Source: a virus
Taxonomy: Duplodnaviria > Heunggongvirae > Uroviricota > Caudoviricetes
Virus record (IMG/VR): IMGVR_UViG_2703718829_000001
Strand: one strand, 5' to 3'
Length of the DNA stretch: 15,311 nt
The first letter of the stretch is position 1, and every line of letters starts with the position of its first letter. A model generated the notes under the pieces. The model worked only from the letters and a program-made list of their open reading frames with translations, did no database searches and was not told the origin of the DNA. This document shows positions 1,716 through 15,311 of the stretch, one piece after another. Both the position numbers and the translations under genes were made by a program.

Positions 1716-2714
1716 TTAAAGAGCCTCTAAAGGGCTTAAATCGAGTTCTAAGTCTTCTGGTGTTAAATCAGCTAACGGTGCATTCATCCACTGCGATAAA
1801 TCTCGTTCTATGTCTTCATCACTAATGTAGTTGTTCAGATTGATTGCGTTGGTATCATCAAAATACATTGGCTTAGATGGGTTGGTGTGGATGTATTCAT
1901 TGATGAATGATTTAACATCTTTCAGCTTGCTAATCGGTAGCGTTTCTGTGAATCCGCTATTCATTACCTTACGTGGAATTTTCTTGCCCTGAATATTCTT
2001 TTTAATCCCCATTTCTAAATCACCAGCTTTCCATCCAATGTTAAACAAATGTGAGCATTCAAAGGTGATTTTCTCGCTGGTGTGCTTCTGGTGTTCTCTT
2101 ACCCGTTGCATCGGATCTTTGCGAGTGGTAATTCCATATTTGAAAAACTTCTCGCCAACACGAATTAGATAAAAGTGCATAGGGCGCTGTGCAAACTTGT
2201 TTCTGATAACCTGTTTTCTACCATTCTGAATTGATTTAAGTACACCCCTAACCAAAGGGCATGTTAACCCGCCTTGTCTGCGGTTATTGTGTAAATCACC
2301 TTTCTTGTGAATCTTTCCGTGGCACTTACAACGAAGAATTAGTTTAGTGTCAACACCCTGATAAGGTTCAGCCAGACCTAACACATCCCACCCTATCGGC
2401 TTGTAGAACTTGCGAGCGTTTTCTAAGTGTTCTTCTTCGGTAAATCTAAACTTCTTCTTAGGCGGTGATACTCTATCTTTGCCAGTAAACTGACCAGTTA
2501 GAACATGACTAATACATGGCGTTTTAACCTTTCCGTTAACTTCTATGCAAACTTTGGTGTTCTGGAATGGTTTCTTTACAGGAAGCACAAAACCACTGTA
2601 TAACCACCCATGCACTTGACAAACTTTAATGATTCTGGTTTCATATTCGACCGGAGGGGTCGCACGTTTGCTTTTTGTGGTAAATTCGATATCCTTTGCT
2701 AAAGTAGTATTCAT
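1716..2714 (-). CDS. GIY-YIG / T5orf172-like domain protein with a Cys/His-rich N-terminal half (putative nuclease or DNA-binding protein)
   Basis: 332-aa ORF with ATG at 2714 and a GAGGA Shine-Dalgarno about 8 nt upstream. The C-terminal half contains HFYLIRVGEKFFKYGITTRKDPMQRVREH, which fits the GIY-(10-11)-YIG-...-R-..-H/E pattern of GIY-YIG and T5orf172 domains. The N-terminal half has Cys/His clusters (CQVHGW, CKCHGKIH...C) suggesting a zinc finger. Family assignment is by pattern only. Confidence 0.5.
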   Translation of the reverse strand: MNTTLAKDIEFTTKSKRATPPVEYETRIIKVCQVHGWLYSGFVLPVKKPFQNTKVCIEVNGKVKTPCISHVLTGQFTGKDRVSPPKKKFRFTEEEHLENARKFYKPIGWDVLGLAEPYQGVDTKLILRCKCHGKIHKKGDLHNNRRQGGLTCPLVRGVLKSIQNGRKQVIRNKFAQRPMHFYLIRVGEKFFKYGITTRKDPMQRVREHQKHTSEKITFECSHLFNIGWKAGDLEMGIKKNIQGKKIPRKVMNSGFTETLPISKLKDVKSFINEYIHTNPSKPMYFDDTNAINLNNYISDEDIERDLSQWMNAPLADLTPEDLELDLSPLEAL

Positions 2715-2749
2715 AGTAGTGTCCTCGAAAATAATAAGTTCACTACTAT
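2714..2749 (-). promoter_or_regulatory. 9-bp perfect inverted repeat ATAGTAGTG / CACTACTAT spanning the start region of the T5orf172-like gene, with a third direct copy (AGTAGTA) inside the first codons
   Basis: Arms at 2714-2722 and 2741-2749 with an 18-nt spacer containing the GAGGA Shine-Dalgarno. A related copy lies at 2703-2709. No T-run follows, so it is not a terminator; it could be an operator or an RNA structure over the ribosome-binding site. Confidence 0.3.
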
Positions 2750-2758
2750 TTATAAGAA

Positions 2759-3130
2759 TTAATTATTGTAGTTTTGGAAGCCAGTAAGATCGCAAAATGA
2801 ATCAGTGTCATGTGCTGGGGAACGATGCTCTGCTTCGTCGGAGAAAATGTTGGATACCGGAGATTCCACTTTAACTTCCGGTGCTTCTTCAACATCTGAC
2901 TTAACTTCTTCGACCACTGGTTCAACTGCTGGAGATTCTTCTTTTGTTTCTTCAATGACGATCTCAGGTTCTTTCATTGCTTCAACCAGAGACGGATCAA
3001 CTTCGTCGAATACCACTTTATCATCTGCGGTATATTTGTCTATAATGAAAAAATGGTCAGAAATATAGCTAACGTCGCCAGCATATTCTAACAAAAAAGC
3101 GCCCACCAGAGGCGCTTTTGTTTTATCCAT
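2759..3130 (-). CDS. Highly acidic hypothetical protein (Glu/Asp/Pro/Val-rich C-terminal half); start codon uncertain
   Basis: ORF ends with TAA at 2759-2761. Candidate starts are TTG at 3160 (overlaps the upstream gene by 38 nt, no Shine-Dalgarno), ATG at 3130 (Shine-Dalgarno-like GGTGGA but no spacer) and ATG at 2977 (72 aa). The terminator hairpin at 3099-3115 lies inside the two longer versions, so the real protein may be the short form. Translation is strongly acidic (EEPEIVIEETKEESPAVEPVVEEVKSDVEEAPEVKVE...). Confidence 0.4.
   Translation of the reverse strand: MDKTKAPLVGAFLLEYAGDVSYISDHFFIIDKYTADDKVVFDEVDPSLVEAMKEPEIVIEETKEESPAVEPVVEEVKSDVEEAPEVKVESPVSNIFSDEAEHRSPAHDTDSFCDLTGFQNYNN
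3093..3116 (-). terminator. Intrinsic terminator downstream of the peptidase M15 gene
   Basis: On the minus strand: AGCGCC-ucuggug-GGCGCU stem-loop (3099-3116) followed by UUUUU (3093-3097), starting 7 nt after the stop at 3123. An A-run on the other side makes it formally bidirectional. Confidence 0.55.
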
Positions 3131-3476
3131 TCCACCGTGATTTTTTTGATCTGGAATCAATATGCGTAAAGGTTTTATATTTTCCTAAGCCGTATTGAGT
3201 AGGATATTTCCCATCAAGATAAGCATGAACAATATCAGGTGAGACACCCTTGATAACAATGTCAGCCGCACGGCCTCGAACGTGATAGCTGTTGGTTGCA
3301 CCGCCTACATTCTTGTTATGAGTCGGGCAACGGTTGCCACTGTTAATAATTACTGGTTTCCCGAAGTGTTCGCGTACATCCTCAAGAATCACCAGTAATT
3401 CAGCGTCGATTGTATCATAATCACATTTTCCGCATTTACATTTAAATTCCTTGCGAGAAAAATGCTTACTTAACAT
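3123..3476 (-). CDS. Peptidase M15 family protein (zinc D-Ala-D-Ala carboxypeptidase-like); putative endolysin or cell-wall hydrolase
   Basis: 117-aa ORF with ATG at 3476 preceded by TAAGGGGGTAAT. The translation FSRKEFKCKCGKC...GKPVIINSGNRCPTHNKNVGGATNSYHVRGRAADIV matches the small peptidase M15 (YcbK/DUF882-like) pattern SG.R....N...GG...S.H..G.A.D. Confidence 0.75.
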   Translation of the reverse strand: MLSKHFSRKEFKCKCGKCDYDTIDAELLVILEDVREHFGKPVIINSGNRCPTHNKNVGGATNSYHVRGRAADIVIKGVSPDIVHAYLDGKYPTQYGLGKYKTFTHIDSRSKKSRWNG

Positions 3477-3485
3477 ATTACCCCC

Positions 3486-3833
3486 TTAGATCATTTCGAA
3501 GATATAACCAATAAAGCGCATACCCTTGATATAATAAGGAGCAGTGCCTACACACACCGCGCGTGCATCACCCAGACAGTTAAAGCTATAAGGATTAACT
3601 ACATCGACTTCTTGTCCTACACGAAAACGATATTTAGGACGTTTAGCCAATGTAGCGACACAAAACACGGTCCCTTTTTCATGATCGCGGATACATTCTT
3701 TATATTGTTTATGTTTAACTCTCTTCGCCTCAAAATCATGTGTCATAGATTCTGGGCTAATGCCATTAATAAAAATACCGGAAAGCTGATCGACCGGATA
3801 AGTAGGAAATTCAGTGAAAATATTTTTAGCCAT
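3486..3833 (-). CDS. Hypothetical protein (115 aa)
   Basis: ATG at 3833 with a GGGGG Shine-Dalgarno 7 nt upstream; TAA at 3486-3488 sits next to the Shine-Dalgarno of the following gene. No family recognised. Confidence 0.7.
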   Translation of the reverse strand: MAKNIFTEFPTYPVDQLSGIFINGISPESMTHDFEAKRVKHKQYKECIRDHEKGTVFCVATLAKRPKYRFRVGQEVDVVNPYSFNCLGDARAVCVGTAPYYIKGMRFIGYIFEMI

Positions 3834-3836
3834 GTT

Positions 3837-3864
3837 ATACCCCCATAAGTTTCTATGAGGGTAT
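3837..3864 (-). promoter_or_regulatory. RNA stem-loop burying the Shine-Dalgarno of the 115-aa gene (copy 2 of a recurring motif)
   Basis: Minus-strand RNA reads AUACCCUCAUA-gaaacu-UAUGGGGGUAU, an 11-bp stem with one G-U wobble. The 3' arm contains the GGGGG Shine-Dalgarno, with the AUG at 3833 three nt past the stem. It starts 8 nt after the upstream stop at 3872. The same core recurs at 10590-10627. Confidence 0.45.
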
Positions 3865-3871
3865 TTATGGA

Positions 3872-4555
3872 TTAAACGTATTTCATGCGCGATTTAATGT
3901 GCTTATTGATGTTTTCAAGCATCATTGCTTCGTTGCTTTCCCACGATCCTAGCGTCGAATAACGAGTAGAAATTTTATCCGACTTAACGGCAACAATTCG
4001 CTTACTCTGTTTCTGGATGCGTTTCTCTAAGCGACGTTTTGCCACCGCCGATCCATTCCTAGCGCGTTTGGTTCGGGATTTCTTAGGCTTGTACTTCTTC
4101 ATGATAAAAGTCCCTTCCTTGTTCTCTACCTTGATGAAGTTGCCGTTTTCGATGTTACGCATCATCTTACCGCCTTTGATGGCCTTAATGTTCCCGTGGG
4201 CGTCTAAGACCTTACCGTTGGCGATTGGAACTAGCTTATTGATTTTGCCCCCATCGAAATAGTGTTTCAGATAGTCGTCTTGACTGCCGATCTTCTTGTC
4301 CTTATCCCTTGCGCCCTTGATGAAGATTTGGTGTCTCGTCCCTGATCGGTTCTTGTAGTTGGTATTACCTACAGCTTGTTGAGTCCATCGAGTAGGTCTA
4401 TCAACATTCTTGTTAATCTTCTTCTGTAGTGCACGAGCAGCAAAGATCGCCCCTTCCCCTAGTGCCCTTTCGAATGTATCGGTTGCTTTATCAGTCCATT
4501 GGCGTAACGCTTTCTTAGTCCTTAGAGCGTTTCGTTTATTGGTACTGGTTGCCAT
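3872..4555 (-). CDS. Lys/Arg-rich basic hypothetical protein (227 aa)
   Basis: ATG at 4555 with a GGGGG Shine-Dalgarno 5 nt upstream. The translation is very basic throughout, especially the C-terminal third (KKYKPKKSRTKRARNGSAVAKRRLEKRIQKQSKR). No family recognised. Confidence 0.7.
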   Translation of the reverse strand: MATSTNKRNALRTKKALRQWTDKATDTFERALGEGAIFAARALQKKINKNVDRPTRWTQQAVGNTNYKNRSGTRHQIFIKGARDKDKKIGSQDDYLKHYFDGGKINKLVPIANGKVLDAHGNIKAIKGGKMMRNIENGNFIKVENKEGTFIMKKYKPKKSRTKRARNGSAVAKRRLEKRIQKQSKRIVAVKSDKISTRYSTLGSWESNEAMMLENINKHIKSRMKYV

Positions 4556-14308: not shown

Positions 14309-14362
14309 TATTCTTTTCCTTCTATTTTAAACAATAGGGCACATACCCGTAATTCTATTTAT

Positions 14363-14665
14363 TTAGCGGTTGCTCAAACGTCTATAACGAAGATGAGCGA
14401 CCCCCCTATTTGTGCTAACGGTAATTACCGCCCCTTGCGGTGCAATACAAGAATGAATCTGTCCCCAATCATGACCCTTATGACTTCCAGACACACAAAA
14501 GCCATGCAAAAGCAATTCTGAGTCACCACCGCCACCACCAGAAGAACTAGCACCAAATGAAACCGTACCGAAAGCGTCGGCTGTCCAACCGTTAGGAATA
14601 TCAAACCATCCCTGATTAGCTTTACCGGCTTTATTGTCTAAAACGCCATACACCCAATATCCCAT
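14363..14665 (-). CDS. Glycine-rich small protein, paralog 3 of 3 (100 aa), function unknown
   Basis: ATG at 14665 with an AGGAG Shine-Dalgarno 9 nt upstream; the start overlaps the stop of paralog 2. Shares MGYWV, WFDIPNGW, a poly-Gly run and a basic/aromatic C-terminus with its two neighbours. Confidence 0.7.
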   Translation of the reverse strand: MGYWVYGVLDNKAGKANQGWFDIPNGWTADAFGTVSFGASSSGGGGGDSELLLHGFCVSGSHKGHDWGQIHSCIAPQGAVITVSTNRGVAHLRYRRLSNR

Positions 14666-14970
14666 TAATGCATTCTCCTAAATTGGAAGTGGTTTAAACT
14701 TCCTTTACCAATGCTAAAACTGACAGTAGCACCAACACCAACTAAAGAACTAGCTCCCCAACTTCCGGCATTACCAGCGTGATGACCTGATTCGAGAGTA
14801 CCGTTTACATATAATTCGGCGTCCAAGTCACCTCCACCGCCAACGGCTTCGGCATGAACAGACACAATACCGCATGAATCCGTCACCCAACCATTAGGGA
14901 TACCAAACCAGCCGCCATTAGCATAAATGCTAATAGCATTAGCCATTCTTCCAGCAACCCAACCAGCCAT
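14665..14970 (-). CDS. Glycine-rich small protein, paralog 2 of 3 (101 aa), function unknown
   Basis: ATG at 14970 with a GGAG Shine-Dalgarno 8 nt upstream; 2 nt after the stop of paralog 1. Motifs MAGWV, WFGIPNGW, GGGG. Confidence 0.7.
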   Translation of the reverse strand: MAGWVAGRMANAISIYANGGWFGIPNGWVTDSCGIVSVHAEAVGGGGDLDAELYVNGTLESGHHAGNAGSWGASSLVGVGATVSFSIGKGSLNHFQFRRMH

Positions 14971-14972
14971 AA

Positions 14973-15269
14973 TTAAAACTCCATAAATTTAAAGTATTCA
15001 ATACCACCGACACCCCCATGACCAAAGGTGACAGTACATCCAGCAGGAACAAACGCATTAACCGTAAATCCCCAATCCCCACCACCACGACGACGCGCGG
15101 CGACCATACCGTCAACGGAAATATGCATATCGCCCCAACCATCACGAGCGGTATGCCGCAAAACGGCAACACCAGCACGACCGGGTACATATCCATTAGG
15201 AATATCAAAAACATGCCATTTTACAGCATCTATTTTAGTGCCTTGTTCATTACTTACCCAATAGCCCAT
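14973..15269 (-). CDS. Glycine-rich small protein, paralog 1 of 3 (98 aa), function unknown
   Basis: ATG at 15269 with an AAGGA Shine-Dalgarno 6 nt upstream. Motifs MGYWV, FDIPNGY, RRRGGGDWG. The most divergent of the three. Confidence 0.65.
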   Translation of the reverse strand: MGYWVSNEQGTKIDAVKWHVFDIPNGYVPGRAGVAVLRHTARDGWGDMHISVDGMVAARRRGGGDWGFTVNAFVPAGCTVTFGHGGVGGIEYFKFMEF

Positions 15270-15311
15270 TTAAGATCCTTAGCGGGGATTTCTCCCATAA
15301 GCGCTAACTTA

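Follow-up and report, generated by a model that had tools for sequence, protein, structure and literature searches.

The 15,311-nt stretch of DNA analysed here (IMG/VR record IMGVR_UViG_2703718829_000001; hereafter the window) is the right-hand 15 kb of an integrated element, and the gene under study occupies positions 1716-2714 of it, preceded by a leader that contains an inverted repeat. This is the only long open reading frame (ORF) of its region. The gene runs on the minus strand and, as the original prediction had it, toward a recombinase gene, here of the serine type, which is read from the plus strand and ends at 1642; a terminator at 1679-1700 lies between them. The features of the locus are given below; L numbers designate the sequences compared, and pLDDT is the predicted local distance difference test score.

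1716-2714, minus strand: nuclease-like ORF beginning with ATG, 332 amino acids (aa); CapR-type modules and a T5orf172/GIY-YIG-like core; homing-endonuclease-type protein
2475-2714, minus strand: residues 1-80, conserved leader M..(F/L)AKDI and module 1, alpha-beta-beta-beta, degenerate CapR-like, zinc ligands mostly gone
2235-2447, minus strand: residues 90-160, module 2, CapR-type, with C129, C131, H132 and C152; fourth Cys of CPxC replaced
1884-2189, minus strand: residues 176-277, T5orf172/GIY-YIG-like core with FYLIRV, KYGIT, R204, E234 and G.TET
1719-1784, minus strand: residues 311-332, disordered acidic tail PLADL.PEDLELDLSPLEAL, pLDDT below 50, from the family alignment
2722-2726, minus strand: Shine-Dalgarno sequence GAGGA, 7 nt upstream of the ATG (2712-2714), inside the loop or a weak inner helix of the hairpin
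2713-2721, minus strand: 3' arm of the hairpin, CACTACTAT (as RNA CACUACUAU), including the A and U of the start codon
2741-2749, minus strand: 5' arm of the hairpin, ATAGTAGTG (as RNA AUAGUAGUG), sharing its first bases with the last 3 nt of the box
2747-2754, minus strand: TATAAATA box, one copy of the promoter-like motif (A/C)TAAATA that recurs throughout the element, identical to the T4 late-promoter consensus
ending at 1642, plus strand: serine recombinase gene, convergent with the nuclease gene; Recombinase and Zn_ribbon_recom domains (Pfam)
1679-1700, no strand assigned: hairpin terminator common to the convergent recombinase and nuclease genes; it persists beside a deletion remnant in L003

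A 9-bp inverted repeat over the Shine-Dalgarno sequence and start codon of this gene had been predicted, and it proved to be real (2741-2749 and 2713-2721). The repeat extends to 14 nt with 86% complementarity (2708-2721 and 2741-2754), and 19 nt lie between its 9-nt arms. The leader RNA was predicted to fold with -12.9 kcal/mol (z = -3.9), and none of 200 shuffled sequences folded as well. A 9-bp repeat alone is not rare, nine inverted pairs being found in 1.65 kb of the region; this one was considered more than chance because it was kept in homologous loci. Absence of the palindrome from such loci had been named as a refutation; it was found in every one of the 16 examined, although the synonymous sites of the gene were saturated. 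A third, direct copy of the repeat had also been claimed. This copy is the ACTACT of codons 3-4 (2703-2708), and it was rejected as a site and assigned to the coding sequence since it was absent beyond the closest relatives.

The substitutions in the stem were of the kind expected for paired RNA. The proportion of paired cells in the 16-locus alignment was 83.8%, compared with 15-59% when the partner was slid, and the covariation score was 0.151 versus 0.106 for shuffles, a value that was reached by none of 500 shuffles. Stem pair 9-42 was GC in nine loci, AU in three, GU in two and mismatched in two; G-U was used in two further stem pairs, and compensatory exchanges of G-C to A-U were present. 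Extra pairs that differed by lineage (GAAU/AUUC and GAU/AUC) lengthened the stem, and the distance between the 9-nt arms ranged from 14 to 21 nt across loci. No Rfam match was obtained in the window or the remainder of the element. The combination of box and hairpin was looked for in phage relatives of the gene: that of Krischvirus Whisky has a sigma-70-type early promoter, and that of Krischvirus JK32 has a terminator-like hairpin.

The box at the 5' arm, which ends 5 nt short of the final base of this arm, belongs to a series. In the window, (A/C)TAAATA was found eight times on the coding strand and not once on the other, and six of these occurrences fell within 633 non-coding nt, where 0.4 would be expected. 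Each intergenic box lies about 30-55 nt 5' of a start codon. The boxes run on through the rest of the element, often right behind terminator hairpins, and their positions are kept in the related elements of Salmonella and Proteus. The same two 7-mers stand 5' of Krischvirus late genes, including inh, uvsW, uvsW.1, uvsY.-2 and others. Judged by its distribution, (A/C)TAAATA looks like the general promoter motif of the element. A sigma-70 promoter at the box was rejected: the scan showed no sigma-70-like site, and no -35 partner was seen by eye upstream.

14366/14362, 13794, 10615, 5067, 3868, 3637 and 2753 (first bases), minus strand: (A/C)TAAATA boxes of the window; more occur in L020 and L001

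The layout of a box joined to a hairpin was found at other genes of the element as well. Upstream of the 115-aa gene that precedes the endolysin gene (window 3825-3868, minus strand), a 12-bp helix runs from the box to the Shine-Dalgarno sequence GGGGG (-15.3 kcal/mol, z = -4.9). At the large terminase gene (L020 19427-19481, plus strand), a similar helix abuts the box, its 3' arm being the Shine-Dalgarno sequence (-10.5 kcal/mol). In Proteus, the gene before the endolysin gene has a helix of other sequence at the same position.

Transcription from T4 late promoters starts about 6 nt past the box. If the same held here, the nuclease mRNA would begin at G2741 and would be unstructured: folding of the leader from the box gave -12.9 kcal/mol, and folding from the predicted T4-type start gave only -1.1 kcal/mol. 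Such a box-initiated transcript would lack the 5' arm and would be translatable. In a transcript arriving from upstream, AUAGUAGUG would pair with CACUACUAU, burying the AUG and, weakly, the Shine-Dalgarno sequence, and translation would be blocked. Both the transcription start and a polymerase holoenzyme that reads the box are presumed in this scheme. An arrangement of this kind has been described for the T4 genes e, soc, 49, I-TevI, I-TevII, I-TevIII and mobE, in which a hairpin occludes the ribosome-binding site or AUG and the 5' half of the hairpin is absent from late-promoter transcripts; segB has been implicated, and mapped 5' ends are mentioned for gene e (PMC3014915). On the evidence of the sequence, the palindrome is most likely an RNA hairpin hiding the start codon, rather than an operator.

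Both the Cys/His clusters and the FYLIRV...KYGIT...R..EH motifs that had been reported for the protein were seen in the translation. The AlphaFold2 (AF2) model had a mean pLDDT of 78, and of about 90 in the core, and consisted of two alpha-beta-beta-beta modules followed by a beta-beta-alpha-beta-alpha core, a modelled fold that agrees with that of the GIY-YIG superfamily (the Pfam clan with PF01541, PF10544 and PF13455). Module 1 was modelled with a helix at residues 21-35 and strands at 38-43, 54-59 and 62-64 (pLDDT about 90), and the N-terminal leader could be aligned to the protein of Krischvirus JK32 as well as to the short T5orf172 proteins. In module 2, C129 and C152 are invariant across the family; C155, near-invariant in the superfamily, is missing in the window protein. 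A sub-threshold match to CapR (PF21817) covered residues 102-134 (16 bits, E 0.014; Pfam cut-off 24.2), and the 394-aa variants of the protein carry precomputed PF21817 hits. The CapR zinc-ligand set CxxC...CxC is incomplete, with CPLV in place of CPxC in module 2 and scattered Cys/His residues in module 1 (His might stand in for the lost ligands), and a profile search of PDB sequences gave weak zinc-ribbon matches at most. What had been called a zinc-finger-like N-terminus is a pair of CapR-type modules, which are degenerate in their zinc ligands.

In the core, Y182, K192, G194, R204, E234, G254, E257 and T258 show little or no variation within the family, and the same is true of (Y/F)193-G194; their putative equivalence to the catalytic residues of I-TevI or SLX1 was judged by motif order only. 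The two degenerate CapR-type modules would bind DNA, and the C-terminal T5orf172-like core, with its conserved Tyr/Arg/Glu positions intact, would cut it. The acidic tail occurs in the 332-aa form and in most 394-aa variants; the Krischvirus JK32 relative lacks it. This tail (residues 311-332) resembles a protein-docking peptide.

The assignment of the core to the GIY-YIG/T5orf172 group, which the original prediction had tied to a significant profile hit, was obtained indirectly. A direct Pfam scan at E<=0.1 matched neither GIY-YIG (PF01541) nor T5orf172 (PF10544), a result that, taken literally, would count as the refutation named with the prediction. The link came through an adjoining protein family of about 190 aa in related elements, three members of which pass the Pfam T5orf172 cut-off (21-36 bits versus 20). 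Alignment of the nuclease family profile with this family by hhalign gave a probability of 98.8% (E 1e-16, 170 columns), with the motif pairs FYLIRVGEKFFKYGIT/LYVMRxGDIGKxGVS, R204/R124, E234/E154 and G.TET/G.TETF. PHROG 681 ('endonuclease') was matched at 7e-20. In BFVD, more than 100 viral proteins matched at E<=1e-3, and the named ones were CapR-homology, GIY-YIG, homing endonuclease or T5orf172 proteins. The close relatives formed 18 clusters, all enterobacterial (Escherichia, Salmonella and Proteus), and a profile of these clusters retrieved 2004 representative relatives; among 100 relatives scanned, domain matches were obtained to CapR (80), DUF4379 (30), MUG113 (25), DUF723 (18) and T5orf172 (7). 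PADLOC matched no defence-system model, the only similarity being a 22-residue motif-level match to PD-Lambda-1 (E 0.005). It may be concluded that the protein belongs to the CapR/zinc-finger plus T5orf172 family within the GIY-YIG superfamily, as its fold and relatives show; presumably it has nuclease activity.

The ORF was intact in all 18 clusters. The ratio of nonsynonymous to synonymous substitution rates (dN/dS) was 0.09-0.16 for the whole gene and 0.04-0.06 in the core, and because of these values the gene was considered functional and not decaying. Divergence among alleles of the nuclease gene is often more rapid than in the adjacent genes for the recombinase and the endolysin; in L014, identity to the reference was 76% for the nuclease, 99% for the recombinase and 97% for the endolysin.

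The slot occupied by the nuclease gene is variable; it is flanked by the lysis genes on one side and by the serine recombinase gene on the other. In E. coli, the 332-aa form was present in 18 genomes, together with one copy at 70% nt identity; an alternative form of 391/394 aa has other N-terminal modules and the same leader, and further states of the slot were deletion remnants or almost nothing. The remnant of L003 (around 2680, minus strand) retains the box and hairpin, only seven codons, and the terminator. Outside the slot, L017 carries at 2836-3873 a 345-aa paralogue with its own AATAAATA box and clean junctions, inserted into the 9 nt that separate the 115-aa gene from the endolysin gene; a clean insertion before the endolysin gene was seen in L017 only. 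The closest phage relative is that of Krischvirus JK32, located between uvsW and uvsW.1, with 35% identity in the core and the same N-terminal leader. Other phage relatives were T5.141 and the gene of Krischvirus Whisky, and no phage homologue exceeded 35% identity.

Whether the locus bears the signature of a homing endonuclease had been left to a comparison with relatives, and this signature was found in part. Presence/absence polymorphism at a conserved site was observed, with remnants and a paralogue in another spacer; the 'empty' sites of this gene are deletion remnants, not naive sites, and homology to a recipient on both flanks was absent. In all three genera the gene has stayed in a single slot, subject to purifying selection. 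On balance, it was regarded as a free-standing gene of the homing-endonuclease type that is maintained in its slot by purifying selection.

The DNA next to the nuclease gene is derived from T4-like phages.

2759-3130, minus strand: ORF, truncated copy of Krischvirus inh (prohead-protease inhibitor); nt 2776-3033 (258 nt) are 98.8% identical to many Krischvirus phages

This fragment spans residues ~78-169 of the 241-aa Krischvirus protein, and the homology ends just 5' of the box of the nuclease gene. In other elements, the nt identity of the fragment was 96%, 77%, 75% or 71%. The far end of the fragment abuts a short T5orf172 gene in L014, L002 and L021, so that it is bracketed by two nuclease genes there. 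A hairpin terminator (3089-3125) was observed directly 3' of the endolysin gene; therefore, the inh fragment and the nuclease gene are outside the lysis operon, past its end. A gene for a UvsW-like helicase is present in further slot variants (UvsW_N; L003 2821-4311, L005 6015-7505, L010 3772-5277 and L025 480-2276), with the ~190-aa CapR plus T5orf172 gene just 5' of it. These uvsW-like genes are 70-80% identical to Krischvirus at the nt level, and one variant also has uvsW.1; the order inh (minus), uvsW (plus) of Krischvirus is kept in these variants. The DNA target of the nuclease would most plausibly be the inh-uvsW region of T4-like Krischvirus phages. The inh fragment is kept in several related elements, and a role of its own is conceivable, which might be, for example, interference with the prohead protease of T4-like phages.

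Taken together, these findings suggest that the gene at 1716-2714 probably encodes a CapR/T5orf172 nuclease of the homing-endonuclease type, whose translation is blocked in read-through transcripts and allowed in box-initiated ones. As for the original prediction, its call on the protein is essentially right, and its reading of the palindrome is to be shifted from an operator to an RNA gate.

A number of observations weigh against this interpretation. One TATAAATA in 15 kb is at the level of chance (1.13 expected), and the wider (A/C)TAAATA pattern alone is significant; no sigma factor or polymerase able to read the box was recognised among the genes of the element. The stem contains mismatches in two loci (A-C in L010 and G-A in L002), and most stem pairs are invariant and hence uninformative on covariation. 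The nuclease core had no direct match in Pfam (E<=0.1), NCBIfam or PDB sequences. In both modules the zinc ligands are incomplete, so that DNA binding by them is presumed. A close copy of the long or the short nuclease gene was not found in 50,697 phage records, including T4-like phages, and Krischvirus homology was present on the inh flank only, so that classical homing into those phages is unsupported.

Among 5426 complete genomes of E. coli, 60 carried the element itself. It is about 36 kb long and is integrated in hicB beside ydcR; a search of IMG/VR returned the same ~35-kb proviruses (35-36 kb) and nothing else, and related elements occur in Salmonella and Proteus. The packaging and head genes include those of a small-terminase-like protein, a lambda-gpA-type large terminase, a portal and a capsid; the tail genes encode a 1234-aa fibre protein, a tail tube, chaperones, a tape measure and a J-like tip. 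An M15 endolysin gene, the variable slot and the recombinase gene (559 aa in full-length copies) follow the tail genes. Neither a polymerase nor a sigma factor nor a replication protein was recognised in the element. Its lambda-J-like tail tip, tape measure, serine recombinase and presence in 60 E. coli chromosomes led to the rejection of a T4-like phage as the source of the window, which TATAAATA had suggested. The ~13-kb E. coli satellites of Barth et al. were also rejected as a match, since they differ in size and the RepA_N domain is absent from the element.

Eight iterons TTTGCCCCTGAAA (L020 15676-15871; spacing 13-43 nt, mostly about 21) were observed in an ORF-free 1.4-kb stretch of the element, which may be an origin or a regulator array. 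The copy in E. coli PE15 contains within the element (L020 8817-13470) an ISApl1-mcr-1-pap2-ISApl1 composite transposon conferring colistin resistance. In the window, three ORFs of about 100 aa (14362-15296, minus strand) are 92% identical to Krischvirus vB_EcoM_G2248, in which they are flanked by the distal tail-fibre gene and the gene for the holin; their place in the element is behind the 1234-aa fibre gene. The stretch is probably an exchanged tail-fibre accessory cassette.

The nearest terminase of an isolated phage was that of PQ671644.1, 'Escherichia phage DCP80' (L027, L028 and L029), with 43% identity. This record contains duplicated or truncated Gaprivervirus genes and a 26-kb siphovirus-type module with the gene order of the element, in which 13 TATAAATA were found on the coding strand versus one (A/C/T)TAAATA 7-mer on the other strand. 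The record looks like a lysate with two entities, or it may be a poor or chimeric assembly.

Other explanations of the palindrome and of the gene were considered. The inverted repeat might be a DNA operator, at which the nuclease or another dimeric protein binds half-sites over the box and start codon and represses transcription. Such control has precedents: I-TevI is an autorepressor at its own T4 late promoter (cited in PMC8096241 and PMC3014915), and CapR of the phage-inducible chromosomal island-like element (PLE), to which the N-terminal modules are related, binds directly to a promoter that it represses (PMC8096241). In addition, the 5' half-site is near-invariant and overlaps the box. 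However, the arms are separated by 14-21 nt, varying by locus, G-U-compatible substitutions occur in three stem pairs, the lineage-specific extensions lengthen the stem and do not preserve a half-site, and unrelated hairpins stand at the same position of two other genes of the element. An RNA helix burying the AUG fits better than a two-half-site operator because of the G-U and compensatory changes, the variable spacing and these stem extensions; an operator was considered improbable, and the autoregulation or dedicated DNA-binding protein proposed earlier was set aside in favour of the hairpin on the same grounds and in view of the layout at two unrelated genes. Chance would account for even less. 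Short inverted repeats are common in the region and a single TATAAATA is expected at random, so that the palindrome could be an accident of an AT-rich leader and the ORF a decaying selfish gene without function, but the repeat was kept in 16 loci although synonymous sites had diverged to saturation, its stem covaries, the z value against shuffles is -3.9, and the ORF was intact in all 18 clusters with a dN/dS of about 0.1. Hardly any weight was given to this explanation.

With respect to the protein, a domesticated, non-cutting regulator similar to CapR was envisaged, which would alter gene expression by binding to DNA, either that of a phage (infecting or helper) or the element's own. The stable position under purifying selection over three genera, the CapR precedent and the failure to find any spread into phage genomes agree with it, but the nuclease core is the most constrained part of the protein (dN/dS 0.04-0.06) and retains the superfamily-invariant G194, R204 and E234 and the TET motif, and CapR itself has no T5orf172 domain; this regulator appears about as doubtful as the operator. 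A somewhat better case, which we regard as possible though still unlikely, can be made for a nuclease with an anti-phage or interference role: on superinfection by a T4-like phage, the box would be read by the late transcription machinery of the invader, whose DNA the nuclease would then cut near inh-uvsW, the interrupted copy in the element being immune. The 7-mers of the boxes are identical to those 5' of Krischvirus late genes, the inh, uvsW and uvsW.1 segments of the slot are 70-99% identical to Krischvirus, the inh fragment lies between two nuclease genes in L014, L002 and L021, the element has no recognisable sigma factor or polymerase, and DCP80 combines T4-like genes with a related structural module bearing 13 coding-strand TATAAATA. 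On the other hand, there was no PADLOC match, the box is not specific to this gene and also stands 5' of the virion and lysis genes of the element, and the element may encode a factor of its own that went unrecognised; DCP80 has the look of an assembly error, and the identity of its terminase is just 43%. A nuclease induced by phage late machinery is compatible with the hairpin-gated homing-endonuclease-type gene proposed above.

A wider reading follows the same lines. Most transcription units of the element bear boxes of the Krischvirus late type, several of them coupled to hairpins that would let box-initiated transcripts alone be translated, and the recombinase-proximal slot gathers inh, uvsW and uvsW.1 segments of Krischvirus origin between T5orf172 nuclease genes; the whole ~36-kb element could take its transcriptional cue from T4-like phages, as a hitchhiker or an antagonist, with the nuclease cutting or recombining the DNA of the invader. 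This is put forward tentatively, as the less likely outcome; dependence on T4-like phages, or triggering by them, is a possibility raised by the Krischvirus-like boxes, the lack of a recognisable sigma factor or polymerase, and the DCP80 module. If true, the element would be a novel type of hitchhiker on, or antagonist of, virulent T4-like phages. The literature yielded nothing relevant on a T4-dependent satellite, on such an element or on the use of T4 late promoters by prophages. T5orf172/CapR nucleases have been described recently, mainly in large lytic phages, as selfish genes at the boundaries of DNA exchange. Here, such a nuclease persists stably and under selection in an integrated element that occurs in E. 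coli, Salmonella and Proteus; it adjoins DNA recently exchanged with virulent T4-like phages and is apparently under T4-type promoter-in-hairpin control. The locus thus offers a concrete case in which traffic between temperate and virulent phages can be put to the test, and it raises the question of whether a chromosomal element listens to the late-gene machinery of an invading T4-like phage.

The gene and its control can be compared with several known systems. With I-TevI and the Seg proteins of T4, the window protein shares a GIY-YIG-superfamily core joined to a separate DNA-binding region that contains a zinc finger, and late, hairpin-gated expression, which is predicted here. The nuclease core is C-terminal in the window protein, whereas it is N-terminal in I-TevI, and it is of the T5orf172/MUG113 type without a PF01541 match. 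The gating of T4 e, soc, 49 and I-TevI likewise involves a hairpin that covers the AUG, with a TATAAATA-type box at its 5' arm, and the gene presumed to be so regulated in the window is of the homing-endonuclease type; a predicted start 6 nt after the box would drop the arm (-12.9 versus -1.1 kcal/mol). Unlike in T4, the host of the present arrangement is an element and not a T4-like phage, the box is the degenerate (A/C)TAAATA, and the design also occurs at the terminase gene and the gene before the endolysin gene.

The T5orf172 homing endonuclease genes of ICP1 and other phages (ICP1 Gp165, Gp174 and others) encode CapR/DUF723/DUF4379 zinc-finger repeats and lie at the edges of tracts that phages have exchanged with one another (Barth, Dunham & Seed 2023, PMC10448857). 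The window gene resembles them in its repeated CapR-type modules followed by a T5orf172 core (GIY-YIG clan), in its free-standing position in an intergenic spacer and in adjoining an exchanged tract (the Krischvirus-derived inh fragment, bracketed by two nucleases in relatives). It differs from them in residing in an integrated serine-recombinase element, not in a large lytic phage, in a single slot under purifying selection in three genera; moreover, the window protein has degenerate zinc ligands, an acidic C-terminal tail and a core undetected by Pfam. It was through similarity to the CapR repressor of PLE that N-terminal domains of the CapR type were first recognised (Netter et al. 2021, PMC8096241). 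CapR itself acts as a repressor and has no nuclease domain, whereas the window protein keeps a constrained core, and a helper relationship is only conjectural here. As in the PLE of Vibrio cholerae, however, a relative of the DNA-binding domains of phage T5orf172 endonucleases is carried on an integrated element; the element of CapR interacts with a lytic phage, and nucleotide-level exchange with a phage is found there likewise (PMC8096241).

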